Shown here: one piece after another, positions 3,129 through 59,415 of the stretch | Position numbering within the stretch: the stretch's first letter is position 1 | How the letters are laid out: every line of letters starts with the position of its first letter | Assembly (NCBI GenBank): GCA_041657425.1 | Contig: JBBABY010000005.1 | Span: forward strand, 22,834 to 86,833 | Source of the DNA: an archaeon | Lineage (GTDB): Archaea > Iainarchaeota > Iainarchaeia > Iainarchaeales > CSSED10-239 | Direction: 5' to 3' | Length of the DNA stretch: 64,000 nucleotides | Made by a program: the position numbers and the translations under genes | The notes under the pieces: generated by a model | Told to the model about the DNA's origin: nothing | Database searches by the model: none | Seen by the model: the letters and a program-made list of their open reading frames with translations, nothing else

Positions 3129-3344
3129 ATGACTGGGAGAATAAGAATTAAGCAAACGCCTAGAAGAGAACACCAAAAAATAACTGATTTAACAAAAAAA
3201 GCAAAAGTTACAGATTTTAGTCATTTAGAAGATTTGTCTGAAATTGAAATAGAAAATTTAGTAAAAATATTAAAACACAGTAATACAAGACCAAATAGTG
3301 CGACTAAAGTTAGACAAAAAAAAGACGTTACAACAAAAAGATAA
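3129..3344 (+). CDS. small basic hypothetical protein
   Basis: 71-aa ORF, Lys/Arg-rich; no recognisable family. Confidence 0.3.
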   Translation: MTGRIRIKQTPRREHQKITDLTKKAKVTDFSHLEDLSEIEIENLVKILKHSNTRPNSATKVRQKKDVTTKR

Positions 3345-3354
3345 CTGGTAAAAA

Positions 3355-5163: not shown

Positions 5164-5270
5164 AATAAAAGGAAAATGAAAGAATATTTAAATGTAGTTT
5201 TTTATAGACTATTTATAATTTGTTTGATTCTTAAATTAAATATATAAGCTAATTTTAAAAAATGATAATT

Positions 5271-6461
5271 ATGAACATATTAGTAATTAATGCAGGAAGC
5301 AGTTCCTTAAAGTTTCAATATATTAATCCAGATACAAAAGCTGTATTAATTAAAGGAAATTATGATGGAATAAATAGAAGCGACGGTAACCCTTGTTTGA
5401 AAAAGATTTCAATTTCTGGCCACAGCACAGTTGATAATTTAATTATTGTAAATCACGAGCAAGCAATTGAAGATATGCTTGTAACATTAACTGAAAAAAA
5501 AGTAATTACGAGATTTTCAGAAATAGAATTTATTGGACATAGAGTTGTTCATGGAGCAGAAGAATATTCAAAAACTACAGAAATTACTGATCAAATGTTA
5601 GAGTCTTTAAAGATTGTTTCTTTTTTAGCTCCACTTCATAATCCAATAAATATTAAATGTATAGAAATCTTAAAAGAGAAATTGCCAGAAGCAAAACAAT
5701 ATGCAGTATTTGACACCGCTTTTCATCAAACAATGCCTGATAAGATTTTCTTGTATGCCTTACCAAAAGACTTATATGATAAATTCAAGATTAGAAAATA
5801 TGGCTTTCACGGAATAAGCCATCAATATGTTTCTAAGCAAGTTGCTGAAATTCTAAATAAAGACTATAATAAATTAAATATAATAACTTGTCATTTAGGT
5901 AACGGTCAAAGCATTTGTGCAATCAAACAAGGAAAGAGCTATGACACCTCTATGGGCTTTACTCCTGTTGATGGGCTTCCAATGGGAACAAGAAGTGGAA
6001 GTTTTGATCCCGAAATTATTCTTTTCCTTTTAGAGAAAGGCTACACTAAAGAAGAAATTAAAAATCTAATAAACAAGAAGTCAGGACTTCTAGGAATAAG
6101 TCAAATAAGCAGTGATCACAGGCAAATTGAAGAACTTTCAAAAAAGGGATTTTTGTTTGCAAGACTTGCTAATGATATTCTTAACACAAGAATAATAAAC
6201 ATCATTGGAAGTTATGCCGCAGAAATGAATGGAGTAGACGTTATTGTTTTTACTGGCGGTATTGGAGAAAAATCAGCTTACTTAAGAGAACAAATTCTTG
6301 AAAACTTTACTTATCTTGGTTTAGAGATAGACAAAGCAGCAAATGACGAACACGAATTAATAATCACAAAACCAAACAGCAAAGTAATAGCAATGGTAAT
6401 TCCAACAAATGAAGAATTAGAAATTGCAATAGAAACAAGTGAGAAAATAAGAAAAGGTTAA
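5271..6461 (+). CDS. ackA: acetate kinase
   Basis: Near-canonical acetate kinase signatures: ILVINAGSSSLKFQ, GHRVVHG, FDTAFHQTMP, ITCHLGNG, VFTGGIGE, IPTNEELEIA. Confidence 0.88.
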   Translation: MNILVINAGSSSLKFQYINPDTKAVLIKGNYDGINRSDGNPCLKKISISGHSTVDNLIIVNHEQAIEDMLVTLTEKKVITRFSEIEFIGHRVVHGAEEYSKTTEITDQMLESLKIVSFLAPLHNPINIKCIEILKEKLPEAKQYAVFDTAFHQTMPDKIFLYALPKDLYDKFKIRKYGFHGISHQYVSKQVAEILNKDYNKLNIITCHLGNGQSICAIKQGKSYDTSMGFTPVDGLPMGTRSGSFDPEIILFLLEKGYTKEEIKNLINKKSGLLGISQISSDHRQIEELSKKGFLFARLANDILNTRIINIIGSYAAEMNGVDVIVFTGGIGEKSAYLREQILENFTYLGLEIDKAANDEHELIITKPNSKVIAMVIPTNEELEIAIETSEKIRKG

Positions 6462-8510
6462 TTACTTTTCATTTCCCATTTTTTCTAATTTCAAAAGTTC
6501 ATTCCATCTTCTGTCTATTTCTTCCTGTATTGATTTAAGAACTGCTTTATTCTCTGGTTTTAAAACACTTTTAAATTTAGTTTGTGTTTTTAAGAATTCT
6601 TCAATTGGTAGTTTGTTTGTTGGTTTGTAATTGATAATTACTTTTCCATTAACCACTTCATAAAGAGGCCAAAAGCAAGTTTCAGTTGCAAGTTTACTTA
6701 TCTTAATTGTTTGTGAAGAATCTGCCTTCATGTTTGTTGGGCAAGCTGCAAATGCAATTAGAACTGCAGGGCCAGAAACATCAAATGCTTTCTTTGCTTT
6801 TTCAAATATATCAACTTGGTTAGAAGGATTAATTTGAGCAACATAAGGAATGTTATGAGCTGCTGCAATCTTTGTTAAATCTTTTGAGAACTCTACTTTA
6901 CCATAAGAACACTTCCCTGAAGGAGTTGTTGAGGTTATTGCACCCTTTGGCGTTGCTGAGCTTCTCTGGTTGCCTGTGTTGTGTACTACAACCCCATCAG
7001 CAATGAAATTATGTTCTCCTTCAACTCTTAAATCAAAGGTTTGTTCTTTGCCAACTTCTTTAATATTTTTTATAATTTCAGTATCGAAGTTTTCATTTCC
7101 AATCAAAAAGTTTTGATATTTATATTGTGTAGGATATTTAGTTGTATTCCAATAATCTTTTTTACTAAAACAAATATAGTGATATTCTGAATTTTTCAGT
7201 AATTTCTTTCCAACGACAAGAGTTCCTTTTTCTTTTTTTTGAGTTGTAATTTTACCAACTCTGTAATTAAGTGTCTGTAATAATAATCTTAATCTTAAGA
7301 TTAATTCTTTACTTGCAGACACATATCTACAACTATCTTTTTTCTTTTTATGAATATACCCGTCAGATAACAACAACCCTTCAATAAATGCTTCTTTTTG
7401 CTCATCTGGAATCGTATAAACCCAAGAAGGAATTATTTTATTCTTTGCACCTTTGTTAAATCCAAGGGATTCAATAAATTTAGTTATGTTAACTGAATTC
7501 ATATAGATGTAAGTTTTATCAGTAGTAATTGTCTTAAATCCAAATACTTTTTTACAAGTAGTTATACATTTTTCTCTACCCTCTGTTCCTTCAGGTAAGG
7601 CAAAACCTATTTCTCCTTTATCTCTAATCCAACCATCTCCAAGATAAAGTCCTAAGAATAACATTAAATCTGTTGTTGATTTTTCTGGTATTTTTACATC
7701 ATTAATTACATTTACTTTATAATCGCCTTTCTTTGAAAGTTGTATTTTTTCAAAAGTAAACGGTTTATTTCCTTTTAATTTCTTTAATGTAATTATTTGA
7801 TCTCCTTTTTTTAATTCTTCAAGTGTTTTCCAAATTAAAGTGTTTGGTTTTCCTCTTGGAAGTTTATTAACAACTAAGAATGGGTGATTTCCTGTTGCTT
7901 TGATGTTATGATGAAAAGTTTCAATTTCATAAACTTTCTTAACTCCATTATCAAACACACCACTGCATTTTTTCAGAACCAATTTGTGTGTTTTTTGATC
8001 AAATGCATAAACCATTTCTCCAACTTTAATTTCAGTTATTTTTTTAAGTCCGGTTTCTGTGTAAATTAATGAGTCTTTACTTAAGCAATTCATGTACCCT
8101 TCATTCGAATAACAAAGATAAACAAAATCATGTCCTCTTTCTAGTGCTCCAGATAAACTTTGAAGACCAATATCAAAACTTCCACCATCTCCAGCAATTA
8201 CTAAAAAATTAATGTCTTTTTTTATTTTTCCTTTTTTCTTTTGTGCTCTGTATGCACTTTCAACTCCAGAAATTGTTGCGGCAGAGTTTGCAAAAAGAGA
8301 ATGTATCCAAGGAATATTCCATGCAGTCTGTGGATAAACTGTTGTTGTAACTTCTGCACAAGAAGTTGCGCTGCTTGCAACAACTGGTTTGTCGCTTGCC
8401 GCAATCACAGTCTTACAAATAATTGCAATGGGGCACCCTGCACAAGTTCTGTATCCTGGAACCATTGCTTTACTTTCAGCTAATTTAATAGCAAGTTCTT
8501 TTGAGTTCAT
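6462..8510 (-). CDS. porB: pyruvate/2-oxoacid:ferredoxin oxidoreductase beta subunit (TPP-binding), intein-containing
   Basis: Exteins match PorB (IAGDGG, YLCYSNEGYMN|TGNQRS); a 370-aa insertion begins with Cys and ends in HN followed by Thr. Confidence 0.85.
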   Translation of the reverse strand: MNSKELAIKLAESKAMVPGYRTCAGCPIAIICKTVIAASDKPVVASSATSCAEVTTTVYPQTAWNIPWIHSLFANSAATISGVESAYRAQKKKGKIKKDINFLVIAGDGGSFDIGLQSLSGALERGHDFVYLCYSNEGYMNCLSKDSLIYTETGLKKITEIKVGEMVYAFDQKTHKLVLKKCSGVFDNGVKKVYEIETFHHNIKATGNHPFLVVNKLPRGKPNTLIWKTLEELKKGDQIITLKKLKGNKPFTFEKIQLSKKGDYKVNVINDVKIPEKSTTDLMLFLGLYLGDGWIRDKGEIGFALPEGTEGREKCITTCKKVFGFKTITTDKTYIYMNSVNITKFIESLGFNKGAKNKIIPSWVYTIPDEQKEAFIEGLLLSDGYIHKKKKDSCRYVSASKELILRLRLLLQTLNYRVGKITTQKKEKGTLVVGKKLLKNSEYHYICFSKKDYWNTTKYPTQYKYQNFLIGNENFDTEIIKNIKEVGKEQTFDLRVEGEHNFIADGVVVHNTGNQRSSATPKGAITSTTPSGKCSYGKVEFSKDLTKIAAAHNIPYVAQINPSNQVDIFEKAKKAFDVSGPAVLIAFAACPTNMKADSSQTIKISKLATETCFWPLYEVVNGKVIINYKPTNKLPIEEFLKTQTKFKSVLKPENKAVLKSIQEEIDRRWNELLKLEKMGNEK
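6978..8087 (-). other. intein with LAGLIDADG homing-endonuclease domain inside porB
   Basis: Starts CLSKDSLIY, ends VVHN with +1 Thr; LAGLIDADG-type blocks LFLGLYLGDGW and IEGLLLSDGY; interrupts the conserved PorB motif YMN-TG. Confidence 0.75.
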
Positions 8511-13006: not shown

Positions 13007-14353
13007 TTGAAAACACTAGAAAAATACTTTAAACCACATACAATTGCAATAATTGGGGCCTCTGATAAGCAGGCAAGTATAGGTAATACCCTCGCTAAGA
13101 ACGTAAGCAACTATAAAAGAAAAGTATTTTTTGTAAATCCTAGATTGTCAGGAAAGAAAATATTAAATAAACAAGTTTTTGCAAGTATTCTAGAAATCAA
13201 AGAAACAATAGATTTAGCAGTTATTGCAGTTCCTGCAGTTGCTGTGATTTCTGTTATTGAAGAAATTGCAAAAACTAAATGTAAGAACATATTAATGGTG
13301 ACTTCTGGTTTTTCAGAGATTGGAAGAATCGACATTACTGAGAATATAAAAAAATTAATAACAAAACACAAAATAAATCTAGTGGGTCCAAATTGTTTAG
13401 GTTTATTAAATCTAGAAAATAATTTAGATATTACATTTAATGACAGAAATAAATATGATTTGCCAAAAGTAGGAAGAACATCAATAATTTCTCAGTCAGG
13501 CGCTCTTGGTCTTGCACTTTTAGATCTCTCAAGTAAAGAGCAATTAGAAATTAATAAGTTTATTTCATATGGTAATGCATTAGATGTTGATGAAAGTGAT
13601 TTATTAGAGTATTTTTATACTGACAAAAGCACAGACCTAATTCTTTGTTACATTGAAGGAGTGCAAAACGGGAAGAAGTTCTTTGAAACATTAAAGAAGG
13701 TTACAAAGAAAAAGAAAGTTATAATTTTAAAAGGCGGAATCTCAGAGAAAGGAACAACAGCAGTTAAGAGTCACACCGCAGCAATTGCCGGTTCTTCAAA
13801 AGTTTTTTCTACAGCAGTTAAGCAAGCAGGAGCAAAAGAAGTAGATAATATTAGAGATTTATTTAATCTTGCAAAGTTTTATTCTTGGTACAAAACAAAT
13901 AAGATGGAAAATATTCAGATAATAACTAATGGTGGGGGGTTTGGCGTAATTACAACAGACCAATTAGATTTACAAAAAATAAAGTTGGCAGAAACTACAA
14001 AAGAAACAAAAGAAAAAATAAAAAAGATTGTTCCAATCTATGCGACAACCACAAACCCAATTGATTTAACAGGGGATGCCGATAATGCCAGATTCTGTAA
14101 AGTTATTGATATTTGTTTAAAAGACAAAAATGTTTCAGCAATTGCAGTATTAATGCTTTTGCAACTACCGAGTATTTCTTCTTCAATTGTTAATGAGATT
14201 GCAAGCAGAAAATCAAAAACACACAAATCAATATTTTTAGTATCAGTTGGTGGAAGTAAAACCGATAAGCAATTAGCAGATTTTGAAAAACAAAAAGTAC
14301 TATGTTTTAAAGACCCAAAAGATCTTTCAAGGATTTTAAAACAAATTATTTAA
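13007..14353 (+). CDS. acetyl-CoA synthetase (ADP-forming) alpha subunit / CoA-binding ligase domain protein
   Basis: N-terminal CoA-binding Rossmann motif (IAIIGASDKQASIGN, LVGPNCLGL) and succinyl-CoA-ligase-like domain; TTG start. Confidence 0.7.
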   Translation: MKTLEKYFKPHTIAIIGASDKQASIGNTLAKNVSNYKRKVFFVNPRLSGKKILNKQVFASILEIKETIDLAVIAVPAVAVISVIEEIAKTKCKNILMVTSGFSEIGRIDITENIKKLITKHKINLVGPNCLGLLNLENNLDITFNDRNKYDLPKVGRTSIISQSGALGLALLDLSSKEQLEINKFISYGNALDVDESDLLEYFYTDKSTDLILCYIEGVQNGKKFFETLKKVTKKKKVIILKGGISEKGTTAVKSHTAAIAGSSKVFSTAVKQAGAKEVDNIRDLFNLAKFYSWYKTNKMENIQIITNGGGFGVITTDQLDLQKIKLAETTKETKEKIKKIVPIYATTTNPIDLTGDADNARFCKVIDICLKDKNVSAIAVLMLLQLPSISSSIVNEIASRKSKTHKSIFLVSVGGSKTDKQLADFEKQKVLCFKDPKDLSRILKQII

Positions 14354-14612: not shown

Positions 14613-16208
14613 TTATTTTTTACAATTTTTTTCTTTATGACAACAGGAGCAGTTATCATTATGTGTTATTTCTAATATTTTTCTTCCTTGTTTGGAATAA
14701 TAATCATTAATTGCTGCTTGAAGTGCATCTGCTGCTAAGTTAGAACAGTGCATTTTAATTGGTGGCAAGCCGTCAAGAGATTTTGCAACATCTCCTCTAG
14801 TTATTTTAAAAGCATCATCTAGAGTTTTACCTTTAGCAAGTTCAGTAACCATAGATGAGGTTGCAATTGCTGCTGCACAGCCAAGTGTCTTAAACTTAAT
14901 ATCTTGAATAATTTCTTTTCCGTCTTTGTTTTTTGAAACAGTAATGTATAACCACATTATATCTCCACAATTATGAACAGTAAAAGCATTTGTGTTGTAA
15001 GAATGCGAAGTATCTATTTCTAAATTATACACTTTGCCGGAATAGTTTTCTGTTTTTTTAAAAGTAATGGGGGTATATAAAATGTTTTTATCTATCCAAG
15101 AGTTTATTGCTTCTGGTCTTAGATTATAAAAAGTAACTTCAATAATTTTAGCAAGTTTTGTTGTAGATTCTTTATCGCCCACGTGTATTCTATAACATTC
15201 TTGATGTTTTTGCTCTTTTTTATCTGTTTTTTCTTTTTCTGTATATATTGATGGAATAATTCCTTGTCTTAATAATAATATTTTAAGTTTATGGACTAAT
15301 TCCTTAGATATAGTAGAATATCCCCCCCTTGGTATTTTTGTATTAAAGAAACCATCCCCTTTCCAAATACCATAAATTAAAGATTTTTGTTTTTCTGGAG
15401 GCAATGTCATAAACATATCTGGTATATCTTTATTTTTAGCACCAGATTTAAATAACTCTTTAAATAATTTAACTATAAAAACGCTATTTATATAAACTAC
15501 TTGAGAATGTTGAGTTTCATTTTTTTTAATAATTGGGGTTATTCCAAAAATTTTTTCTGAAATTCTAACCACGTCTTGTGCAAGATTATTTTCTTTTAAA
15601 TTAAAACAAAATGCTATATGCACATTATTTGTTTTATCAAAATAATATCCTTCTGAAAGATAATATCCTGCTAATCTTAAAAAATCTGAATCTAATTTTA
15701 TTTTTGAAGGTATTGATTTACTATTGTGATCAAATTTCTTTTTTTTGGTATTTACTTCTAAGTAATCAACATCTTTTGTATCAGATAGTATTGCATATAA
15801 AATTAAGTCGCCTTTATCTAGTTGTTCTGCGTGATACCAGGCCGGAATTAATGTTTTTTTATTTTTCGTTCTTAAAAATTTATCTCCTTTAGGGATTTTT
15901 ATTGCATAAACAAGATGTTCTTTAGTTAATTTTATTTCTCCTAGTCTGTTTTTTAGAACAATAATTGGTTCAGAAATAACTCTTTTGTAAGTTTCAGTAA
16001 CTGAATGATACTTCCCATCATGACTTATAATAAAATCATTTTTTTTTATATCTTTAATTTTTTTTAGTTTTAAATTAGTGTGTATATTTGTATCTTTAAA
16101 CAAGCATTTAGGATTTCCTACCTTTCCAACTCCGTCAGCATTTTCAATCTCTCCAAGGTTTTGTGGTTTTAAGAAATTTTCCATAACTTTTTTTGAATAG
16201 TTTTCCAT
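14613..16208 (-). CDS. iscU: Fe-S cluster scaffold IscU/NifU-like, intein-containing
   Basis: Exteins MENYSK...GNPK | CGDIMWLYI ... GCAAAIATSS ... HCSNLAADAL are IscU; a 379-aa insertion sits between them. Confidence 0.85.
   Translation of the reverse strand: MENYSKKVMENFLKPQNLGEIENADGVGKVGNPKCLFKDTNIHTNLKLKKIKDIKKNDFIISHDGKYHSVTETYKRVISEPIIVLKNRLGEIKLTKEHLVYAIKIPKGDKFLRTKNKKTLIPAWYHAEQLDKGDLILYAILSDTKDVDYLEVNTKKKKFDHNSKSIPSKIKLDSDFLRLAGYYLSEGYYFDKTNNVHIAFCFNLKENNLAQDVVRISEKIFGITPIIKKNETQHSQVVYINSVFIVKLFKELFKSGAKNKDIPDMFMTLPPEKQKSLIYGIWKGDGFFNTKIPRGGYSTISKELVHKLKILLLRQGIIPSIYTEKEKTDKKEQKHQECYRIHVGDKESTTKLAKIIEVTFYNLRPEAINSWIDKNILYTPITFKKTENYSGKVYNLEIDTSHSYNTNAFTVHNCGDIMWLYITVSKNKDGKEIIQDIKFKTLGCAAAIATSSMVTELAKGKTLDDAFKITRGDVAKSLDGLPPIKMHCSNLAADALQAAINDYYSKQGRKILEITHNDNCSCCHKEKNCKK
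14970..16106 (-). other. intein with LAGLIDADG homing-endonuclease domain inside iscU
   Basis: Begins CLFKDT, ends FTVHN with +1 Cys, which is the first Cys of the IscU CGD motif; LAGLIDADG blocks LRLAGYYLSEGY and IYGIWKGDGF. Confidence 0.75.
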
Positions 16209-16219
16209 AATCTTTTCAC

Positions 16220-17362
16220 CTAATATTTATAAGGACACATTTCTCTTAATTTTTTAATTGTGTCTTTAACAGTGTCAACAGTATATTTAATTTCTTCTTT
16301 AGTATTATCAATTCCTACAGAGAATCTAACAGTTCCATGAGTTTGTTCTTGTTTTAATCCTATTGCTCTTAAAACATGACTTGGTTCAAGAGTATTAGAT
16401 GAACAAGCAGAACCAGTTGAAACTGAAATTCCTGCAGCATCAAGATACAAAAGTATTGCTTCTCCTTCTGCATACATGAAACTCAAATTAGCATTATTAC
16501 ATAGCCTTTTATCTTTTGAACCATTCAACCAAGACTCTTCAACATCTGATAATCCTTTAATCAATTGATTTCTAAGATTAGTCATATGTTCAATTTCTTT
16601 TTCTCCAATGATGTCGGTTGCTTTAGAAAAACCAATTATTCCAGGAACATTAACAGTTCCGCTTCTTAAATTATATTCGTGTCCTCCACCATGAAGAAGC
16701 GGTTCTAATTTTATTCCTTCTTTAATAAATAATCCTCCAACACCTTTAGGTCCATAAATCTTATGAGCATTAATTGTTAAAAGATCAATATTGTCTTTCT
16801 CAAGGTTAATTGGAGCTTTTGTAAAACTTTGACAAGCATCTGAATGGAAAAGAGTTTCTTTTTCATGGCAAATTTTTCCAATCTCTCTTAAGTCTTGAAT
16901 AGTTCCAATCTCGTTATTTCCATGAATTACAGAAACTACAAGTGTGTCTTTTTTAATTGCCTTTTCAAGTTGGGAAAGATTAACAAAACCTTCTTTATCA
17001 ACATCAAGATATGTTACAGAATATCCTTTTCTTTCAAGAAACTTATAAACATTAAGAATACTATCGTGTTCAATCTTTGTTGTAATAATGTGTTTCTTAT
17101 TTTTGTTATTTTCTGCTAGCCCCTTAATTGCAAAATTATTACTTTCTGTTCCTCCAGAAGTAAAGATTAGTTTGTGATTTTTGCTATTGGCCTTCTTTGA
17201 AATGTGCTCTCTTGCTTTATCTAGTTCTGCTTTAGCTTCGCGACCAATTGTGTGAAGACTAGAGGAATTTCCGAAGTATTTTTCTTCTGCGTCAGTTATT
17301 GCTTTCATAACAGATGAATGCATCTTTGTTGTTGCTGCATTATCTAAATAAATTGATTTCAT
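16220..17362 (-). CDS. iscS: cysteine desulfurase
   Basis: Class V aminotransferase/NifS signatures (YLDNAATT, SSLH, SGGTESNN, active-site region SACSS). Confidence 0.9.
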   Translation of the reverse strand: MKSIYLDNAATTKMHSSVMKAITDAEEKYFGNSSSLHTIGREAKAELDKAREHISKKANSKNHKLIFTSGGTESNNFAIKGLAENNKNKKHIITTKIEHDSILNVYKFLERKGYSVTYLDVDKEGFVNLSQLEKAIKKDTLVVSVIHGNNEIGTIQDLREIGKICHEKETLFHSDACQSFTKAPINLEKDNIDLLTINAHKIYGPKGVGGLFIKEGIKLEPLLHGGGHEYNLRSGTVNVPGIIGFSKATDIIGEKEIEHMTNLRNQLIKGLSDVEESWLNGSKDKRLCNNANLSFMYAEGEAILLYLDAAGISVSTGSACSSNTLEPSHVLRAIGLKQEQTHGTVRFSVGIDNTKEEIKYTVDTVKDTIKKLREMCPYKY

Positions 17363-39131: not shown

Positions 39132-40841
39132 CTATGTGTTTAGAAATTCAAAGGTACTGGTTGTTCCTTTTTTAAATTTGTGATTTTTTAAGAAATCTAT
39201 GTGGTCAAATCTTTCTCTTGTAATTTTTTCTTTATCTGTGTCTTGTAGTTGTATAAAATTATTAATATCATAAGAACACAAAAATTCAGGCATAATCACA
39301 TAGTCTGCTCCAGCATGATATAATTCTAAAGCCACATCTATGTGATCATTAACTACAATAAATAAGATATTTTTGTTTTTAGATTTAATCTTAGATATTA
39401 AAAAGTGATTAATGGAATAAGAATTAATTGTTGATATAATTACTTTTATTTTAGAGAGATTTAGTTCTTCTGTTAATTCAACATTTCCTGCATCTCCATA
39501 AATATGATTAATTCTATTTTTTGTAAGTATTTTATCGATTTCGGGATTATGGTCAATTACCAAAAATTTTTTATTTTTCGTTTTAAGATATTCTCCAACA
39601 CCCATTCCTACTTTATTATATCCAAAGATGATATAATTATAATCTTCTATAATTTGCACTTCGTCTCTTGCATTTTTCTTTTCAAAGATATTTAGATATT
39701 TTCCGATTTTATCAAATATCCAATCAGAATATATTATCATGTAAGAAGAGCAAGTAATTGTTATTAGCCCTACAAAGGTAACAAATGAAAGAACCTCTGT
39801 TGTTAAATGTCCCGCAGTAATTCCTAAAGCGATAAGGATTAAAGAAAATTCAGAAATTTGAGCAACAGTAAGTCCTGCCATAAATCCTACTTTTTTTTTG
39901 TAACCCGATAGTCCCATAATAATCATAACAATTAAAGGATTACCTATTAAAATAAATAATGACAAAATTATTATTGGAATAATGTGTGCGGAAAAACTTC
40001 CAAAAGTCATTTGTAATCCTAATAATACAAAAAATAAAATCAAAAAGAAATCTCTTAGTGGTTTAAGCTTAAGGTTTATCTCAAATCTGTACGTTGAAAA
40101 AGACAAGAAAAATCCTGCAAGAAGCGCCCCGATTTCAATAGAGAAACCAAAGTAAAAAAACAATGCTGCAAGTATTAAACACCAACCAATTGAAAATAAT
40201 AATAAAAATTCTTGCGATTTTGCTACAAATTTAAGAAATTTAGGCAACAAATATATTGAAAATAATAACAATCCAATTACTAATCCAATGCCAATAAATA
40301 TATTAGTTAACATTGATGATTTGTTTTGTCCACTAAGAGAAGAAATAACAATTAAAACAACTATTGCAACAAGATCTTGAACAACTAAAAAACCAATAGA
40401 TATTTTTCCATAAAGAGAATTGACTGCCCCCTTATCTGTAAGCAACTTCATTATAATAATGGTACTACTAAATGCAAGAGCTAAAGACACATAAAGAGAA
40501 GTAACCCAATTAAATCCTATAAGTAAACAAATAAGATATCCTATACCAGTAGTAAAAACAATTTGACCAATACCTGTAAATAAGGAAACCTTGCCCACTT
40601 CTTTTAAGACTTTAGGATTAAGATTTATCCCTACCATAAATAACAATAAAGAAACGCCTATATGTGAAAATACCGTAATTGACGAGGTGTCTTTAATAAT
40701 ATTTAGAACATATGGACTAACTACAATTCCTGTAAGTATATATCCAATAATTAGTGGTTGCTTTAATAATCTAATAATTGTAGTTATGATAATAGCTATG
40801 AATATAATAATACAGATTTCAATAAAAAAATTATTAATCAT
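39132..40841 (-). CDS. CPA2-family K+/H+ antiporter (Kef-type) with TrkA-N domain
   Basis: Na_H_exchanger membrane domain followed by a Rossmann TrkA-N (IIFGYNKVGMGVGEYL). Confidence 0.7.
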   Translation of the reverse strand: MINNFFIEICIIIFIAIIITTIIRLLKQPLIIGYILTGIVVSPYVLNIIKDTSSITVFSHIGVSLLLFMVGINLNPKVLKEVGKVSLFTGIGQIVFTTGIGYLICLLIGFNWVTSLYVSLALAFSSTIIIMKLLTDKGAVNSLYGKISIGFLVVQDLVAIVVLIVISSLSGQNKSSMLTNIFIGIGLVIGLLLFSIYLLPKFLKFVAKSQEFLLLFSIGWCLILAALFFYFGFSIEIGALLAGFFLSFSTYRFEINLKLKPLRDFFLILFFVLLGLQMTFGSFSAHIIPIIILSLFILIGNPLIVMIIMGLSGYKKKVGFMAGLTVAQISEFSLILIALGITAGHLTTEVLSFVTFVGLITITCSSYMIIYSDWIFDKIGKYLNIFEKKNARDEVQIIEDYNYIIFGYNKVGMGVGEYLKTKNKKFLVIDHNPEIDKILTKNRINHIYGDAGNVELTEELNLSKIKVIISTINSYSINHFLISKIKSKNKNILFIVVNDHIDVALELYHAGADYVIMPEFLCSYDINNFIQLQDTDKEKITRERFDHIDFLKNHKFKKGTTSTFEFLNT

Positions 40842-40926: not shown

Positions 40927-42615
40927 ATGACACATTTACTATTATTGAATATTGCAATTATCATAATTTGTGCAACAGTAATGACATTTATTTTTACTAA
41001 ACTTAAACAACCATCTGTTCTCGCATTTATAGTAACTGGTATTTTAATAGGTCCGTTAGTTCTTGGTTGGGTTAATAATTCTGAAGAAATAATGTTAATT
41101 TCTGAAATTGGAATTGCCTTTCTTTTATTTAGTGTAGGAATTGGAACGGATTTAAAAGAATTAAAAAGTTTAAAATTATCGATTATTCTTTTGCCATTAA
41201 TAAATATAGTTCTTATGTTTATATTTTTATTTGTATTTAGTAAAGTTATTAATCTCACATTAATTCAATCATTATATTTTTCTGTCATATTGTCATTCAG
41301 TTCCACAATGTTAGTTGCTAAGATTTATTTAGATAATTTTATGATTGATTCTTTGCATGGGCGGATTGCGATCGGAATACTTCTTGTTGAAGATCTTATA
41401 GCCATTCTTGCAATTCCAATTTTAAAAAATTTCAGCGAATTTACATTTTTGATGTTTTTAATAATTCTTGCAAAGACTGCGGTATTTGTTCTTTTTGCTC
41501 TTTTTTTAAATAAAATTGTGTATCCTTATATTATAAAACAAGCATACAAATCTGAGCAAAGTTTCTTCTTATTATCAATTGCAAGTTGTTTTATATTTAT
41601 TATGTTATCTTATCTTCTTGATTTTCCAATGGCCGTTGGTGCATTTTTTGGGGGGGTTGCAATTTCTATTTATCCGTATAGTTACGAAATCTCTAATAAA
41701 ATCTCAAGTATAAGAGATCTTTTAGCAACTATTGTTTTTGTATCTTTAGGTATGCAGTTATCTTTAAATATTTCTAACGATATTTTCTTTATAATAGTAA
41801 TATTTATACTTGCATTTATAATAAAACCAATAATTCATTTCTTTATGATTTTATTTGCAGGATATGGTACAAAAATTTCTTTAAGAGTATCTGGAGATTT
41901 AAACCAGATTTCTGAATTTTCGTTAATAATAGCAATGCAAGGAATCGCTTTGGGGCAAATTACAAGTTCACAATATGCAATAGTGATTATAATTACTTCT
42001 CTATCAATGTTAACAACACCTTATGTAATGCTTAATAGTGAAAAGATATATACTTTCTTTAAACCAATAATGGATAGATTTAAGGAAGAATTTTGGCACA
42101 GGCAAATAAATTCATTGTCTACCATTTCAAAAGATATTAAAGATCACATAGTAGTAATTGGTTCAGATGTAATGACTGAAGGTTTCATAAAAGTAGTTTC
42201 AAGAGATGTAGATCAACCAATTATCTTAGTGGATTATAATCCAGAAAAGTTATTAGCTTTTCAAAACAAAAGAATAAAATATGTTTGTGGAGACATCAAC
42301 TATAAAGAAGTAATGAATGCAGTAAATTTAAAAGAAGCAAAACTTGCAATATTGACTGCTCCAAAGTTTGATACAACAATAAGATTTCTAAAAACTGCAA
42401 AAACAATTAACCCTCGGCTTCCAATTTATGTTAGAGCAAAAACTAAAAAAGAAGCATTACAATTATATGAGCTTGGTGCAGATTTAGTGATCTTACCACA
42501 TGTTTTAGAATCAAATTATCTTCTTCAAAAAGTTTATTCTTTTGTTAAAGATGGTCCCGAAAGAAACAAGGCTCTAAGATCTGAATATTTAAGTTATTTA
42601 AAAAAAGAAAATTAG
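40927..42615 (+). CDS. CPA2-family K+/H+ antiporter (Kef-type) with TrkA-N domain, paralog
   Basis: Same architecture as 39132..40841 (membrane domain plus VVIGSDVMTEGFIKVV Rossmann); divergently arranged. Confidence 0.7.
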   Translation: MTHLLLLNIAIIIICATVMTFIFTKLKQPSVLAFIVTGILIGPLVLGWVNNSEEIMLISEIGIAFLLFSVGIGTDLKELKSLKLSIILLPLINIVLMFIFLFVFSKVINLTLIQSLYFSVILSFSSTMLVAKIYLDNFMIDSLHGRIAIGILLVEDLIAILAIPILKNFSEFTFLMFLIILAKTAVFVLFALFLNKIVYPYIIKQAYKSEQSFFLLSIASCFIFIMLSYLLDFPMAVGAFFGGVAISIYPYSYEISNKISSIRDLLATIVFVSLGMQLSLNISNDIFFIIVIFILAFIIKPIIHFFMILFAGYGTKISLRVSGDLNQISEFSLIIAMQGIALGQITSSQYAIVIIITSLSMLTTPYVMLNSEKIYTFFKPIMDRFKEEFWHRQINSLSTISKDIKDHIVVIGSDVMTEGFIKVVSRDVDQPIILVDYNPEKLLAFQNKRIKYVCGDINYKEVMNAVNLKEAKLAILTAPKFDTTIRFLKTAKTINPRLPIYVRAKTKKEALQLYELGADLVILPHVLESNYLLQKVYSFVKDGPERNKALRSEYLSYLKKEN

Positions 42616-54205: not shown

Positions 54206-54288
54206 GCAGAGATGGCGGAGTGGCCAAACGCGCCAGCCTTGAGAGCTGGAGTCGAAAGACTACGCGAGTTCGAATCTCGTTCTCTGCG
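54206..54288 (+). tRNA. tRNA-Ser (TGA)
   Basis: Acceptor GCAGAGA/TCTCTGC, anticodon stem CCAGC/GCTGG with loop CTTGAGA, long variable arm, T-arm GCGAG-TTCGAAT-CTCGT. Confidence 0.85.
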
Positions 54289-54312
54289 CTTAAAATTGTT
54301 AAAAGATCATTT

Positions 54313-54651
54313 ATGTCAGAAGAAAAACCAATCATTACTTTTGATGATTTCATAAAATTAGACATAAGAATAGGAACAGTTATAGAAGCAGAAAAAGTAC
54401 CAAACAGTTCAAAGCTTCTAAAGCTAATAATTGACTTTGGAGATTTTAAAAGACAAATACTTGCAGGAATTGGTACCAAGTATTCTCCTGAAGACTTACA
54501 AGGTAAACAAATACCAGTAATAGTTAATCTTGCACCAAGAAAGATGGCGGGGTTAGTTAGTCAAGGAATGATTATGGCTGTAGGGGATAATGATGTGGAA
54601 GCTCTTTTGTTTCCAACAGAAGCCGTAAAATCAGGAAGTTCAGTTCACTAA
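54313..54651 (+). CDS. tRNA-binding protein (Trbp111/CsaA, EMAP-like OB fold)
   Basis: FIKLDIRIGTVIEAEKVPNSSKLLKLIIDFGD...QILAGI...GKQIPVIVNLAPRKMAGLVSQGMIMA matches the Trbp111/CsaA pattern; real start at the ATG at 54313 (the track ORF extends into the tRNA). Confidence 0.75.
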   Translation: MSEEKPIITFDDFIKLDIRIGTVIEAEKVPNSSKLLKLIIDFGDFKRQILAGIGTKYSPEDLQGKQIPVIVNLAPRKMAGLVSQGMIMAVGDNDVEALLFPTEAVKSGSSVH

Positions 54652-54936: not shown

Positions 54937-55070
54937 TTTAGTTGTGTGTCGATAAGCAACCAGTTAGTGCCATACAAATTCTGGCTGGGCGCCAACTCAG
55001 GAAAACAAAAGTTTTCAGGATGCCAAGAAATCGCAGCGACGATTTGTTGTGCACGACCGCAACCGGTTGT

Positions 55071-55153
55071 GCAGAGGTGGTGGAGTGGTCAAACGCACTA
55101 GCCTGGAAAGCTAGAGTCGAAAGACTACGCGAGTTCGAATCTCGTCCTCTGCG
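55071..55153 (+). tRNA. tRNA-Ser (GGA)
   Basis: Acceptor GCAGAGG/CCTCTGC, anticodon stem CTAGC/GCTAG with loop CTGGAAA, long variable arm, same T-arm as tRNA-Ser(TGA). Confidence 0.85.
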
Positions 55154-55369
55154 ATTAAATTTAGATCAACAGTTTGCTGTAAGTGAGCTTGTAGACTGGA
55201 TTAAAGGCAAGAAGCTCGCCCACGACTACGAAACAGGACTAATTTCTAAAATCCCGCTAATCTTCGAAGATACTCAAAAACATACGTACGTTTCTGAAAA
55301 GTGTTCTCAACAAAATCTTTTTAAATACAATATACAATAACTATTTATAGAAATAAAGTGTGATAAAAA

Positions 55370-56047
55370 ATGGTTGTAAGAAAATTAACAAAAGGCAGTT
55401 TCCCAAATGCAAAAAATATTAAGAGCATTAAAATAGGAGGTCGTAAATTCGTTGCAGAAAAGAAACAGACAGCAGACATAAAACTAGAAATAAATAAAGA
55501 AAAAATTAAAATAATCAGTTCTTTAAAAAAACGTCTAGAGAGAGGAGAATTAAAATTAACCAGTGCCGATTTAATGAAATTAAAGGCACAGGGAATTAGC
55601 CTGATTGAATTAAGAAAAGTAATAGCTCCAGAATATTTGTTAAAAACTTTGAGTTTAAAAGCATTTGTAAAAATATATGGTCAAGAAGATGTAGTTAAGG
55701 CTTTTAATGGTATTTCCCGATTAATATTTGATGCTGGTTTGAGGGAGACAGTTTATGCTATTGATCCAAAATATTTTAAAAATGAATTTTCATTAAAAGA
55801 AATTGTGAATAAGCTTTTTAAATACGGCTACAAGGATGTGTCACAGTATAGGGCCCCAGATATGCAAAGCTATATGTCACAAAATGGACGTTATGAAGTA
55901 GCAAAGGCTTGGGGGCTTAAGAATATAATAGAAACATTTGGGATTAAAGAGACTATGGTGGCTATGGGTAGATCAGAATCTGAACTTAGATCTTTATTAA
56001 ATGCATCAGATTACGATTTAGGGAAAGCTTTTCCTCGCGAATATTAG
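55370..56047 (+). CDS. hypothetical protein (islet segment 1)
   Basis: 225 aa, no family recognised; its TAG stop is formed by the first bases of the att-like repeat. Confidence 0.4.
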   Translation: MVVRKLTKGSFPNAKNIKSIKIGGRKFVAEKKQTADIKLEINKEKIKIISSLKKRLERGELKLTSADLMKLKAQGISLIELRKVIAPEYLLKTLSLKAFVKIYGQEDVVKAFNGISRLIFDAGLRETVYAIDPKYFKNEFSLKEIVNKLFKYGYKDVSQYRAPDMQSYMSQNGRYEVAKAWGLKNIIETFGIKETMVAMGRSESELRSLLNASDYDLGKAFPREY

Positions 56048-56090
56048 AGTCTCACGACTACGCGAGTTCGAATCTCGTCCTCTGCGATTT
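56047..56090 (+). repeat. direct repeat of tRNA-Ser(GGA) 3' end (att-like, copy 1)
   Basis: GACTACGCGAGTTCGAATCTCGTCCTCTGCGATT is identical to 55120..55153 plus 2 nt. Confidence 0.85.
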
Positions 56091-56111: not shown

Positions 56112-57509
56112 TTATTTCAAAAACACACACTCTTCATTTTTTATTCGCGGATATTTTTTGTTTGACCAAGCAATTGTTCCACCAGAAATGTGAATAGCAT
56201 TATATCCTTCAATAATTAAATTTTTTGCAGCTTTAAAGGACTTTTCTCCAGTTTCACAAATAAGATAGATGTTGTTTTCTTTTTTTATTTTTTGTTTATA
56301 GTTTTTTATAAAAGCATCCATCGGTATGTTTGTAAATCCAGGAATGTGATAATCCCCAAATTTATTTTCAATTCTTAGGTCTATAAAAATATTGTTTGGA
56401 TTTCTTTTAATGTCTGTATTTAATTTTTCAGAATAGGTTTCTTTAAGTATTTTATAAAGTTTAGTTACAGTTATAGAATCTACTTTATCTTTTGTATGTT
56501 TAGTTGTAATTTCATAAGGAAGTAATTCTTTGTTAATTACTTTTGGAAAATCAGACGTTGGAAGATATGAAAAATATTCATCTAGATATGGTAATGGCGT
56601 GTCGTAACAAATAAATACGCAAGTTTTATTCTTAAGTTTATTTCTCTTAATATATTCTAATAACCCTGCAAGAGCAAACCCAGAACTTGGGCCAACTAAT
56701 AATCCGCTTCTAATTAATTTTAAGCTTTGGGTATAAGATTCAACACTTCCAATCTCGATAATATCATCTGCATTATTCTTCCAATCAAAAGCAATCATTT
56801 TCAAAAGATTTTTTGTTCTAACGCCTGGTACTAAGTTATTTGGTTTTCTTATTACCCCTATTGCCTTGAGGTTATCGTTTTTCTTCTTTAAGTAATTACT
56901 AGTTCCAAGAAAGGTTCCAGTTGTTCCAAGTCCTGAACAAAAGATATCAATCTTTCCATTTGTTTGAATCCAAATTTGTTTTCCTGTTATCAAACTATGC
57001 GAATTAGGATTATTTAAATTATCATATTGTCCAAAGTTAATATATTTCTCAGATTTAGCCATTTGTTTAGCCTTATAGATCCCGCTATTTTCATCATCTG
57101 GATCTGGACAAATTGGTTCATTATTAATAATCGGAGTAATCCCAAATAACCTTAGCATATTTAATTTATTTTTTGTAACTTCATTTGAAACAAATGCTTT
57201 CATTGAATTTAATCCATAATGCCTGCCAATTATTCCTAAAGAATAAGCAGTATTCCCTGAAGAATTTTCTATGATTGTAGGTTTATTTTGTAATTTCTTT
57301 TGAATATGTGCTGAATTAATCATCTCATATGCAGGAATAGATTTAATATTAAGTAAAGGCAAAGTGTTTTGTAATTTTGCAAATATTCTAATCCCATTTT
57401 TTCTAAAAGGATTACATTTATCATCAAGCTCTACAAGAGGAGTCATATGATTATGAGGATTGATATAATCCTTTATTGCATTCTTTCCAGAATAAACATT
57501 ATTTTTCAT
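56112..57509 (-). CDS. PLP-dependent cysteine synthase/CBS-family enzyme fused to C-terminal rhodanese domain
   Basis: PALP motifs (TPLVEL, SSGNTAYSLG, GLGTTGT) followed by a rhodanese module with active-site loop YLICETGEKS. Confidence 0.65.
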   Translation of the reverse strand: MKNNVYSGKNAIKDYINPHNHMTPLVELDDKCNPFRKNGIRIFAKLQNTLPLLNIKSIPAYEMINSAHIQKKLQNKPTIIENSSGNTAYSLGIIGRHYGLNSMKAFVSNEVTKNKLNMLRLFGITPIINNEPICPDPDDENSGIYKAKQMAKSEKYINFGQYDNLNNPNSHSLITGKQIWIQTNGKIDIFCSGLGTTGTFLGTSNYLKKKNDNLKAIGVIRKPNNLVPGVRTKNLLKMIAFDWKNNADDIIEIGSVESYTQSLKLIRSGLLVGPSSGFALAGLLEYIKRNKLKNKTCVFICYDTPLPYLDEYFSYLPTSDFPKVINKELLPYEITTKHTKDKVDSITVTKLYKILKETYSEKLNTDIKRNPNNIFIDLRIENKFGDYHIPGFTNIPMDAFIKNYKQKIKKENNIYLICETGEKSFKAAKNLIIEGYNAIHISGGTIAWSNKKYPRIKNEECVFLK

Positions 57510-57515
57510 AATCTT

Positions 57516-58460
57516 TCATTTAAATTTAAAATTAAGATCGATCTGAGAACTTAGATCTCCAAATCTGTCTTTAATGCTTGGTTGAGAAACATATTTCGTG
57601 TGTAATAATTGAAGTCTAGACAATCTTTTGTTTGGGTCAGGAGTAATTTTATTAATCTCTAAATATAGTTTTTCTAATACTTCTAAATTGTTAGTTTCAA
57701 ATTTATCTAAAGTAACTGCCCCACCGTACTTATCAAGTAATTGTAGATATTTAGAATCTCTAATAAATCCAATTATTTTTTCTGCACCAACATTGTCTAT
57801 TAAAAATTTTAAATCATCTTCATTTTTTATTTTATTTCCAAGAATAAAGAAATTATCAACATTGTTTTTGCTTAAGTTTTCAAACATTTTAAACAATTCT
57901 ACACTTTTTTTTGTAGGCTCTACAATTAGTACAATTGCATCAAACTGCAAATGCATTGAAGATGCAAATAAATCTGTTCCTGCAACCATGTCAGAAACTA
58001 TATATTCATTTTTATCGTATGTGTGACTAAGAATAATTTCTAAAATTTCAAGATTGTTATGATAACAACTAGTTCCTACACCGTGGACTTCATAAGTTCC
58101 AACAACTGCTAAGTATGCATTATCTGAAATCTCTTTACAGAAATTAGAAATAAAATAATCTTCTTTAGTAATTGTTATTAATTTAGAATTAACAGAAGGA
58201 GGAGTAGTCTTTCTAAATTCGTCATTATTTTTTATAAGATCGTTTGTTCCTTTTAAGTAGTTTTTAATTTTTAATTTTAGATTATTATTTGAAATATATT
58301 CTTCAGAAGACACTGTACAATTAAATAACTCAGGAAGATGCACATTTATGTCTGCATCAATCACAAGTACAGGTTTTCCTTTAGAAATAATTAATTTACT
58401 AAATAATGCAGAAAGGGTAGTTTTACCAACGCCGCCTTTCCCAACAAATGCTATTCTCAT
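57516..58460 (-). CDS. CooC/MinD-like P-loop ATPase
   Basis: Deviant Walker A AFVGKGGVGKTT, DADIN motif, CooC-like Cys region HGVGTSCYHN; start moved to the internal Met at 58460 because the upstream 17 codons lie in AT-rich promoter-like DNA. Confidence 0.6.
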   Translation of the reverse strand: MRIAFVGKGGVGKTTLSALFSKLIISKGKPVLVIDADINVHLPELFNCTVSSEEYISNNNLKLKIKNYLKGTNDLIKNNDEFRKTTPPSVNSKLITITKEDYFISNFCKEISDNAYLAVVGTYEVHGVGTSCYHNNLEILEIILSHTYDKNEYIVSDMVAGTDLFASSMHLQFDAIVLIVEPTKKSVELFKMFENLSKNNVDNFFILGNKIKNEDDLKFLIDNVGAEKIIGFIRDSKYLQLLDKYGGAVTLDKFETNNLEVLEKLYLEINKITPDPNKRLSRLQLLHTKYVSQPSIKDRFGDLSSQIDLNFKFK

Positions 58461-58491
58461 ACATATATATATTTTTCTTCCTTTATATATA

Positions 58492-58510
58492 TTAATGATA
58501 ACCATTATCA
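58492..58510 (+). promoter_or_regulatory. Fur-box-like operator TTAATGATAACCATTATCA
   Basis: 16/18 match to the classical Fur box core ATAATGATAATCATTATC; inverted repeat TGATAA-N3-TTATCA; sits between divergent fur and the ATPase/Cys-synthase-rhodanese operon, 14 bp before the fur ATG. Confidence 0.6.
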
Positions 58511-58523
58511 ATAAGGATAAAAT

Positions 58524-58883
58524 ATGTCTAAATCAAGAAGAACTATACAAAAAGAACTAATTTTAAAAGAAATAGAAAACATGAAAGTTTTCTTCTCTGC
58601 AGCAGAACTTTATAGTAGAATTAATTCTAAACACAAAATTGGTATTGCAACAATATATAGAATTCTTAATCAGCTAACTAAAGATTATATTATTTATTCA
58701 TTTGTTTGCGATAAACGAAACATTTATTCAAAACACGGAAGAAACCACTGCCATTTCGTTTGTGAAGATACTGGCGAAATTATTCATTTTAATATAGATT
58801 CTTTAGATTTCTTAAAAGATAAACTTCCTGGAAAAATTATTTCTTTTCAAATAGAAATAAAAGGTATTAAAAATAAGAAATAA
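58524..58883 (+). CDS. fur: Fur-family metalloregulator
   Basis: N-terminal wHTH (SAAELYSRI...IGIATIYRILNQL) and metal-site region HGRNHCHFVCEDTGEIIHF. Confidence 0.75.
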   Translation: MSKSRRTIQKELILKEIENMKVFFSAAELYSRINSKHKIGIATIYRILNQLTKDYIIYSFVCDKRNIYSKHGRNHCHFVCEDTGEIIHFNIDSLDFLKDKLPGKIISFQIEIKGIKNKK

Positions 58884-59292: not shown

Positions 59293-59372
59293 GTAACTTT
59301 CTTTTTTATTTTTTTAGTAAGCGGCTAGTGAAAGAATGTGACTTGCAAAAAAGTATCGGTACTAGAATGCGA

Positions 59373-59415
59373 GAGTCTCACGACTACTCGATTTCGAATC
59401 TAGTCTTATGCAATT
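59373..59415 (+). repeat. degenerate direct repeat of tRNA-Ser 3' end (att-like, copy 2)
   Basis: GAGTCTCACGACTACTCGATTTCGAATCTAGTCTTATGCAATT; 6 mismatches over the 34-nt tRNA-derived part. Confidence 0.7.

Follow-up and report, generated by a model that had tools for sequence, protein, structure and literature searches.

The unit described here lies in a 64,000-nucleotide stretch of DNA from an archaeon of the Iainarchaeota (GenBank assembly GCA_041657425.1, contig JBBABY010000005.1, forward-strand positions 22,834 to 86,833); this whole stretch is referred to as the window, and its features are given by their positions within it. On the minus strand, a gene for a 314-residue CooC-like P-loop ATPase (57516-58460; Pfam CbiA/ParA/ArsA, with a match to CooC1) is followed by the gene (56112-57509) for a 465-residue fusion protein, which begins 6 bp past the ATPase stop codon and joins a pyridoxal 5′-phosphate (PLP) enzyme of the cysteine-synthase fold to a rhodanese domain (Pfam PALP and Rhodanese); the fusion is related to the aspergillomarasmine A (AMA) synthase of fungi. 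A 63-bp promoter region (58461-58523), containing an AT-rich TATA-like stretch and a Fur-type box, separates the ATPase gene from a divergent plus-strand gene (58524-58883) for a 119-residue regulator of the Fur family (PF01475, 3.7e-16). A first-pass annotation had already pointed to the ATPase with its deviant Walker A motif and CooC-like Cys region, to the PLP enzyme 6 bp downstream with all PALP motifs and a fused rhodanese carrying the loop CETGEKS, and to a Fur box and att-like flanks around the unit, and our analysis bears out each of these.

The ATPase reading frame as listed extends from 57516 to 58511 on the minus strand and opens with a TTG codon at 58511; because MRIAFVGKGG forms the N-terminus of all 120 ATPase homologues, we place the true start at the ATG at 58460. 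The deviant Walker A motif, GKGGVGKTT, lies at 58416-58442, and the segment SCYHNN, containing Cys132-Tyr-His134, at 58053-58070. The top sequence relative of solved structure, and the sole clear full-length one, is CooC1 (3kje; E = 2e-12), in which SCYHNN aligns on QCYCRE, with Cys-x-His in place of Cys-x-Cys. An AlphaFold model built from 30 homologues (predicted local distance difference test score, pLDDT, of 91.3) also retrieves CooC1 first in Foldseek (E = 6.9e-14), followed by ParA, MinD, FleN, ATPase-type HypB and NifH near 1e-9. Residues C132, Y133, H134, H146 and H287 are invariant in 121 of 121 homologues, H41 and H170 are kept in 120 of the 121, and a C-terminal helical extension of about 60 residues, with the motif RFGDL..QID, is specific to the family. 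Genes for CO dehydrogenase/acetyl-CoA synthase were not found among the 29 Pfam-scanned open reading frames (ORFs) of the window, nor do they appear among the families listed in a census of genes flanking related loci (300 ORFs from 59 loci, about 2.6 kb around the module, given as the 25 commonest Pfam families per batch of 150 ORFs). As judged from its sequence, the ATPase belongs to a CooC-like subfamily in which Cys-x-His is invariant and for which no CO dehydrogenase partner is seen among these genes.

The catalytic part of the fusion protein is a PALP domain (residues 17-301, 56607-57461; Pfam 9.5e-37). It contains the PLP-binding Lys56 (57342-57344), the asparagine loop SSGNT (residues 83-87, 57249-57263), the phosphate loop GTTGT (195-199, 56913-56927) and GPSSG (273-277, 56679-56693), all of them invariant among 121 fusion homologues, which places the enzyme among the fold-type II PLP enzymes of beta-replacement. 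The putative anion-binding residue R231 (56817-56819), in a PGIRR motif, aligns on R210 of Escherichia coli CysM. Cys134 (57108-57110) sits in the loop EPICPDP (57099-57119), of which EPIC (residues 131-134) is a four-residue insertion relative to CysM; in the CysM alignment it adjoins a KEQGMEG loop that, from CysK and CysM structures, we take to line the active-site entrance. The rhodanese domain (residues 369-450, 56160-56405; Pfam 2.3e-9) scores highest against MoeB/MoeZ-type domains, and its active-site loop, C418-E-T-G-E-K-S424 (56238-56258), starts with Cys and closes with Ser, as expected of the six-residue loop of a sulfurtransferase (final residue Ser, Thr or Arg, in positive surroundings), and is mostly basic across homologues, which makes the domain a putative sulfurtransferase. 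We set aside an arsenate-reductase-type rhodanese, which would have a CX5R loop, since the final residue here is Ser or Thr. Among the 121 homologues C418 and G421 are invariant and residue 424 is always Ser or Thr; conservation of the catalytic cysteine was one of the checks on which the first-pass annotation had staked its proposal, and it gives no cause for rejection.

The protein ends in a tail predicted to be flexible, in which PRIKNEEC (56127-56150) includes Cys461; P454, R455 and C461 are invariant (121/121), and in an AlphaFold2 model of the fusion with an overall pLDDT of 85.7, residues 461-465 fall below 50. The three cysteines C134, C418 and C461 are thus each found in 121 of 121 fused homologues, and C134 is absent from 20 of 20 relatives that lack the rhodanese domain and is kept in distant fused ones. 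Together they probably make up a site, for binding metal or for relaying thiols, by which enzyme and ATPase are coupled. The fusion misses the NCBIfam cut-offs for cysKM (151.5 versus 344 bits), CysM (132.6 versus 413), SbnA (116.8 versus 350) and CBS (116.9 versus 510), and no curated family includes either it or the ATPase.

In phmmer searches the best relative of solved structure is 8h4q/8h4h (E = 4e-71 over residues 4-398; the entry title there is "rhodanese domain-containing protein"), with CBS and CysM next near 1e-25. The top four Foldseek matches of the fusion model are likewise 8h4q and 8h4h (1.5e-42), labelled there as aspergillomarasmine A synthetase in its apo form and with O-phosphoserine. 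According to PMC8319579, which cites Guo et al. 2020, AMA synthase builds AMA single-handedly by adding O-phospho-L-serine successively to L-aspartate. The only metals bound by AMA are Zn2+, Co2+ and Ni2+. A second enzyme with PLP and rhodanese-like domains, Fda4 of Fusarium poae, condenses O-phosphoserine with L-alanine en route to L-2,3-diaminopropionate (PMC12751119; the second gene of the fungal AMA cluster is not named in the supplement to that paper). Both enzymes form C-N bonds, and the characterised members of this architecture are therefore C-N-forming enzymes rather than agents of sulfur chemistry. For a comparison of clades we set 119 fungal homologues (60-91% identical to the AMA-synthase PDB protein, whose best fungal match, a Pyrenophora tritici-repentis protein, is 91% identical) against 40 prokaryotic ones. 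N86, C134, R221, N224-N225 and a basic rhodanese loop are present in the window enzyme and in every one of the 40 prokaryotic homologues sampled, in place of the residues invariant in the fungal enzymes, all 119 of which have Gln at the position of C134. Fungi keep the rhodanese Cys with equal strictness (119/119), and because those enzymes form C-N bonds its conservation alone is no sign of a persulfide relay.

Such a relay, running through all three cysteines, nonetheless deserves consideration. Cys418 would take sulfane sulfur from thiosulfate or a desulfurase and pass it to Cys461 on the flexible tail, the tail would swing into the PLP site to attack the aminoacrylate derived from O-phosphoserine, and Cys134 at the active-site entrance would resolve the mixed disulfide, freeing cysteine or another thiol; in reverse, the enzyme could yield a protein persulfide, and the ATPase would take sulfur together with metal to build or carry a metal-sulfur centre. 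The scheme resembles the feeding of CysM by the CysO thiocarboxylate in Mycobacterium tuberculosis and the three-cysteine relay of SepCysS, and it would account for the strict invariance of the cysteines, for the restriction of C134 to proteins with a rhodanese domain, for the MoeB/MoeZ-like character of that domain, for the predicted disorder of the tail and for the EPIC insertion beside a loop presumed to line the CysM active site. In prokaryotes the rhodanese loop, C-[RKY]-x-G-N-x-S, has the basic character of active sulfurtransferases whereas the fungal one is acidic, and R231 is equivalent to CysM R210, a residue linked to the binding of thiosulfate or large anions. Against this stand the C-N chemistry of both characterised members, with their equally invariant rhodanese Cys, and the genomic surroundings: no sulfur-carrier protein or thioredoxin is linked among the families listed for the 300 flanking ORFs of the 59 loci, decarboxylase and methyltransferase tailoring genes (see below) point to a small-molecule product, and cysteine synthesis would be hard to rationalise under a Zur-like regulator near znuA and COG0523 genes. 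The window moreover has a NifS-like class-V aminotransferase gene (16220-17362) adjoining one for a NifU/IscU-type Fe-S scaffold (14613-16208, minus strand). We consider the relay rather unlikely. Of the sulfur roles suggested in the first-pass annotation, persulfide chemistry is weakened by the C-N-forming relatives and keeps some footing in the three cysteines and the basic loop specific to the prokaryotic fused clade, while Fe-S supply loses ground, being less attractive because the window already encodes the NifS-like/NifU pair, and zinc-related neighbours occur at other loci.

With either protein as query, full-length homologues that are 43-50% identical number in the hundreds, and those of the two proteins share contigs. 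An alignment-based scan of one genome per species (a scan with a single-protein query matched none) found 338 relatives, mostly in Patescibacteria, with some in Marsarchaeota, Kapaibacteria, Bdellovibrionota and others; since the PALP-rhodanese architecture is also common across ascomycete fungi, the earlier description of the fusion as uncommon has to be abandoned. Locus statistics were drawn from the 80 loci kept. The fused form is present in 57 of these, of which 51 have at least 1050 bp of upstream sequence and are informative, and in 47 of the 51, mostly from Patescibacteria, an orthologous ATPase gene lies directly upstream on the same strand. The two genes are separated by -16 to +56 bp (median about 23) at 45 of these loci and by 823 and 1091 bp at the other two. 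Two more of the 51 (loci L008 and L079) have a divergent CooC-like ATPase that keeps C-A-H. The last two (L084, 4376-5968, and L085, 65-1486, here and below in locus coordinates), both from Bdellovibrionota, encode distant fused homologues, 29-30% identical, with no ATPase gene; instead, a gene for a PLP enzyme resembling ornithine/diaminopimelate decarboxylases overlaps their start, and C461 is replaced by Ala in L084. The rhodanese-less relatives, proteins of about 350 residues from Proteobacteria, Actinomycetota and Chloroflexota, occupy 22 loci, none of which (0/22) has the ATPase and whose neighbourhoods contain no conserved partner. The signature of C134, C418 and C461 accordingly occurs only alongside a rhodanese domain and nearly always with the ATPase.

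This conserved synteny effectively refutes the suggestion that unrelated genes have come together by chance on a mobile islet. The location of the unit between att-like repeats would fit such an origin, as would the recombinases, relaxases and transposases often found near related loci, but the gene order recurs in 47 of 51 species loci at only 40-50% identity, and a module-specific operator is common to the loci. The tight pairing could also be read as that of an enzyme with a dedicated maturase, the ATPase inserting metal into, or removing it from, a site on the enzyme made up of Cys134, Cys418 and Cys461, much as CooC matures the enzyme encoded next to it. That site might be catalytic, or it might be an on/off switch that stops the enzyme when metal is plentiful; the enzyme's own reaction is left open by this reading. 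NTPases of the CooC class are typically encoded beside the enzyme they mature, and here the two coding regions either overlap or are separated by a few bases, the presence of C134 goes together with that of the ATPase and the rhodanese domain from locus to locus (C461 is invariant throughout the main fused clade), and a Cys2His2 arrangement at the ATPase dimer interface with a Cys3 site in its partner would make a plausible donor and acceptor. A zinc-requiring enzyme that is switched on by zinc starvation would be paradoxical, however, and the distant fused proteins of L084 and L085 keep C134 and C418 without an ATPase, so that we regard a maturase as improbable.

Several loci also encode what may be tailoring enzymes. 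Genes for S-adenosylmethionine-dependent methyltransferase-like proteins lie in or beside the operon at five loci, and the pairing with a decarboxylase in L084 and L085 recalls, by analogy, metallophore pathways based on 2,3-diaminopropionate and ethylenediamine; to judge by their sequences, the decarboxylase-like and methyltransferase-like genes hint at a small-molecule product. Two loci have peculiarities of their own. In L079 both the ATPase gene (5149-5990) and the fusion gene (6001-7278) are interrupted by in-frame TGA codons at conserved Gly positions, for example VGK*GSGKS, which indicates genetic code 25 (UGA = Gly), the code used by Gracilibacteria/Absconditabacteria, although the record is labelled Peribacteria. 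In L086, the closest relative of the window module, a gene with an alanine-racemase N-terminal domain (2921-4009, minus strand) lies convergent just past the fusion gene, and a fragment of a Met-tRNA synthetase gene lies upstream where the window has its Fur gene.

FUR is by far the commonest family in the flanking-gene census, with 41 of the 300 ORFs, followed by YibE_F membrane proteins (12), ArsP_1 permeases (3) and cobW, HMA and YbjQ_1 (2 each), along with a few mobile-element genes such as those for resolvase and relaxase. A Fur-family gene adjoins the module in about 70% of loci, where it either heads the operon, at gaps of 0-23 bp, or is transcribed divergently. The first-pass annotation had allowed its proposal to fall if related fusions were not linked to an ATPase or a Fur site; both links, that to the ATPase (47/51) and that to a Fur-family gene, are conserved. 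The operator TGCAA-N5-TTGCA is found in promoters at 37 of 49 loci, mostly perfect, often double and positioned over the -35 and -10 elements, against a background of no perfect and 23 one-mismatch matches in 530 kb of flanking DNA (0.04 per kb). A classical Fur box was considered as the common operator and rejected, being absent from 38 bacterial promoter regions and from the closest relatives of the window.

The window itself differs in both its operator and its regulator. Its box, TGATAACCATTATCA at 58496-58510, has the 7-1-7 form TGATAAC-C-ATTATCA with one mismatch to TGATAATnATTATCA; it lies 14 bp upstream of the regulator start codon and is unique in the 64 kb at one mismatch or fewer, and the TATA-like element of the promoter is kept in close relatives. 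With its PF01475 domain and palindromic operator, the window protein is a predicted Fur-family metalloregulator. Its matches in the PDB are 8j6w (4e-9) and 2w57 (1e-8), it is closest to the Fur proteins of E. coli and Vibrio, and it has neither of the CxxC pairs. The bacterial module regulators, which retain two CxxC pairs and HxH, are nearest to Zur structures (2o03, 1.8e-15; 3mwm, 5e-14), with Nur at 1.5e-5. We rejected orthology of the module regulators with Nur because this match is weak and the His70/His72 pattern of the Nur nickel site is mostly absent; the regulators of L017, L020, L022, L023 and L051 have RHNHAHYE in the S1-S2 hairpin, which resembles that site. The nearest relatives of the window, with ATPases 81-90% identical, have no adjoining Fur gene. 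It therefore appears, from these sequence relationships, that two different Fur-family lineages have become attached independently to the same module, and such independent recruitment strengthens the link between the module and metal.

The neighbours at some loci bear on which metal this is. In L008, genes for ZnuC, ZnuA and the Fur-family regulator lie on one strand, divergent from the CooC-like ATPase gene, an ORF without assigned function and the fusion gene; a CobW/COG0523 GTPase gene and a pair of ArsP_1/DUF1980 permease genes are found downstream, and the divergent promoter includes one perfect TGCAACTGAATTGCA together with another box over the -35 and -10 elements. In L018 a COG0523 gene, the ATPase gene, a methyltransferase-like gene and the fusion gene follow one another on one strand, and in L029 and L047 the ArsP_1/DUF1980 pair is divergent from the ATPase gene, with two boxes between them in L029. 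YibE_F (PF07907) membrane proteins are encoded at 12-14 loci in an operon with the module's Fur-family gene (for example L001, 5368-6540, and L094, 4390-5559); that of L050 has a His-rich tail, HAGHHH, and these proteins are candidate transporters of metal or of a chelator. Zur regulons have ZnuABC and COG0523 as hallmarks and include metallophore synthesis and putative NTPase metallochaperones (PMC6103462), and because these hallmarks recur beside the module, zinc is the best-supported signal in the bacterial loci, as far as gene content can tell. The likeness of the box to that of Nur and of the ATPase to CooC, and the metals that AMA selects, make nickel or cobalt possible as well. The first-pass assignment of the unit to metal is thus upheld by the ATPase and Fur linkage in dozens of species, while iron, suggested by the Fur box, fares less well, since related loci indicate zinc through their ZnuA/ZnuC, COG0523 and Zur-like regulators.

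Our interpretation, to which we give a probability of roughly 45%, is of a self-contained cassette for metal starvation, which would both produce a small chelator and handle metal, and which most likely helps very small microbes to withstand a shortage of zinc (or of nickel or cobalt). Metallophore building-block synthesis, one of several options listed in the first-pass annotation, thereby becomes the best lead. A Fur-family repressor, Zur-like and in a zinc context in related bacteria, would occupy the operator of the common promoter and let go when its metal runs short. From its motifs and homologues we infer that the PLP enzyme would convert O-phospho-L-serine to a PLP-bound aminoacrylate and then add a nucleophile, yielding a small aminopolycarboxylate-type, possibly thiol-bearing, chelator of Zn, Ni or Co, as with AMA synthase and Fda4. 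The ATPase, presumably co-translated with the enzyme, would dimerise around ATP, with a metal ion held by a pair of Cys132-x-His134 motifs, and would pass this ion on, in the manner of CooC for nickel and as proposed for COG0523 GTPases with zinc. The mobile, accessory character of the module also speaks for chelator synthesis. The chelator, relay and maturase readings are not mutually exclusive, and a thiol-bearing chelator is possible.

A number of observations weigh against this cassette interpretation. On the side of the enzyme, residues around the active site are fixed differently in the two clades (prokaryote/fungus: N86/S, C134/Q, R221/T, N224-N225/G-D), and because these clade-invariant residues differ, the nucleophile, and hence the product, of the prokaryotic enzymes may differ from those of AMA synthase. 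The three cysteines and the basic canonical rhodanese loop are without a role in known AMA synthase chemistry, a supply of O-phosphoserine in reduced genomes is an assumption, and chelator synthesis leaves the strict co-occurrence of fusion and ATPase unexplained; to our knowledge there is no precedent for a metallochaperone translationally coupled to a metallophore synthase. On the side of the metal, zinc-specific neighbours are present in only a handful of loci, and no exporter or importer dedicated to the module is universally linked to it. The Zur-specific Asp/Cys residues of the M-site do not align in the regulator of L015, the sole module regulator compared with M. tuberculosis Zur, and none are among the columns conserved at 80% or more in 39 regulators. 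The module operator moreover matches the site of a nickel regulator, the Streptomyces coelicolor Nur box tTGCaa-N5-ttGCAA (PMC2691836), in its half-sites, its 5-bp spacer and its 6-5-6 layout, and in the window, where regulator and box are both Fur-like, iron is possible.

The unit bears signs of mobility. The source tRNA-Ser(gga) gene lies at 55070-55154, and the 45 nt at its 3′ end recur in two att-like copies on the plus strand: one at 56045-56089, 93% identical to 55112-55156, marks one boundary of the islet, and a more decayed one at 59371-59415, 78% identical to the tRNA copy, marks the other. Both carry the variant GTCTCACGAC, and between them they enclose the genes for the fusion, the ATPase, the Fur-family regulator and MscL. 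The tRNA-Ser(tga) gene (54206-54289) and the gga gene share 88% identity across 92 nt, and after them come the two tRNA 3′-end fragments, an arrangement that suggests tandem integration events; the first islet (55157-56044) contains only a 225-residue ORF without a Pfam match and has no visible integrase. Related loci often lie beside genes for relaxase, FtsK or single-stranded DNA-binding protein, or beside Y1 transposases or serine recombinases. The window is archaeal by gene content (topoisomerase VI A and B, RadA, pyruvate:ferredoxin oxidoreductase) while the relatives of the module are mostly bacterial, and taken with the tRNA-derived repeats and the mobile-element neighbours this makes horizontal spread of the module between Patescibacteria and DPANN-like archaea likely.

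A fuller version of the proposal, which we put forward as tentative and somewhat doubtful, is that of a hitherto unrecognised mobile zinc-starvation cassette of ultra-small Patescibacteria and DPANN archaea, in which a one-enzyme route to an AMA-like (possibly thiol-containing) zincophore would be physically coupled to a new class of CooC-like Cys/His zinc-chaperone ATPase, under a Zur-like repressor acting at a 6-5-6 operator of the Nur type; on this view the AMA synthases of fungi would be a simplified offshoot of the prokaryotic system. Full-text literature searches returned no published account of the module in prokaryotes. The enzyme family is known, as is each of the protein classes; the novelty lies in the obligate pairing, the CooC-like subfamily with Cys-x-His, the signature of three cysteines and the 6-5-6 operator. 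How episymbionts with reduced genomes acquire trace metals is largely obscure, and a horizontally mobile cassette of two genes with its own regulation would solve the problem compactly. Against the NDM and VIM metallo-beta-lactamases AMA is the leading natural inhibitor, and AMA synthase serves as a biocatalyst; a large and diverse prokaryotic sister family with other active-site surroundings would open more aminopolycarboxylate or thiol chelators to enzymatic synthesis. The Cys-x-His subfamily also allows a zinc-chaperone role to be tested in the MinD/CooC class alongside the COG0523 GTPases, and TGCAA-N5-TTGCA offers a handle for mapping a metal regulon in Patescibacteria.

Some other genes of the window merit mention. 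Inteins with LAGLIDADG homing-endonuclease domains interrupt two minus-strand genes, that for the thiamine pyrophosphate-binding subunit of pyruvate:ferredoxin oxidoreductase (6462-8510) and that for the NifU/IscU-type scaffold (14613-16208). A full-length acetate kinase gene (5262-6461, plus strand; PF00871, 7.6e-135) accompanies an ADP-forming acyl-CoA synthetase-like gene at 13007-14353; acetate kinase is unusual in archaea, and its horizontal acquisition is therefore possible. Two divergent paralogues (39132-40841, minus strand, and 40927-42615, plus strand) each combine a Na+/H+ exchanger with a TrkA_N domain. The 5′ end of a GTG-start ORF for a tRNA-binding-domain protein (54220-54651, plus strand) overlaps the tRNA-Ser(tga) gene; translation probably begins about 32 codons further on, at the internal Met of MSEEKP.

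Comparison with characterised systems sets each component of the module beside a known counterpart. CooC1, the nickel-insertion ATPase for CO dehydrogenase, shares with the module ATPase a deviant Walker A motif with its signature Lys, the MinD/CooC fold and the position of the metal motif, but is only 22% identical to it, has C-x-C rather than C-x-H and lacks the extra C-terminal helical domain. As in the Zur regulons for EDDS in Amycolatopsis and pseudopaline in Pseudomonas (PMC6103462), a Fur-family repressor stands over a putative chelator enzyme and a putative NTPase metallochaperone, and ZnuA/ZnuC and COG0523 genes adjoin the module in L008 and L018; the module NTPase, however, is of the MinD/CooC class and not G3E, and its operator is 6-5-6 and not the usual n-1-n Zur box. 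The resemblance to the Nur box likewise does not extend to the window, which has its Fur-type 7-1-7 box instead.

The CysM/CysO/MoeZ system of M. tuberculosis and E. coli CysM represent cysteine synthases that use O-phosphoserine or thiosulfate. They have in common with the module enzyme the PLP fold, the conserved PG-x-R arginine, a MoeZ-type rhodanese and, conceivably, a flexible C-terminal tail carrying the nucleophile; the module enzyme nevertheless scores 151 bits against the 344-bit cysK/cysM cut-off and has no linked gene for a CysO-like carrier, and the rhodanese of MoeZ is joined to an adenylyltransferase whereas that of the module is joined to a synthase. The closest overall similarity is to the fungal AMA synthase (8H4H/8H4Q), which has the same architecture of PALP and C-terminal rhodanese domains. 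The phosphate loop, GPSSG and the PG-x-R arginine are common to both enzymes, and K56, S83-S84-G85, T87, Q161, R231, S275 and the rhodanese Cys to both clades. Identity is only about 31-37%, though, the fungal rhodanese loop is the acidic CY(D/N)GD where the prokaryotic loop is basic, the tail residues W448, S449, P454, R455 and C461 are found in prokaryotes only, and the prokaryotic form is set apart by its obligate partner, the CooC-like ATPase, and by a regulator of the Fur family. The product of the fungal enzyme, a chelator selective for Zn, Ni and Co, is nonetheless of the kind that would suit the metal regulation of the module.

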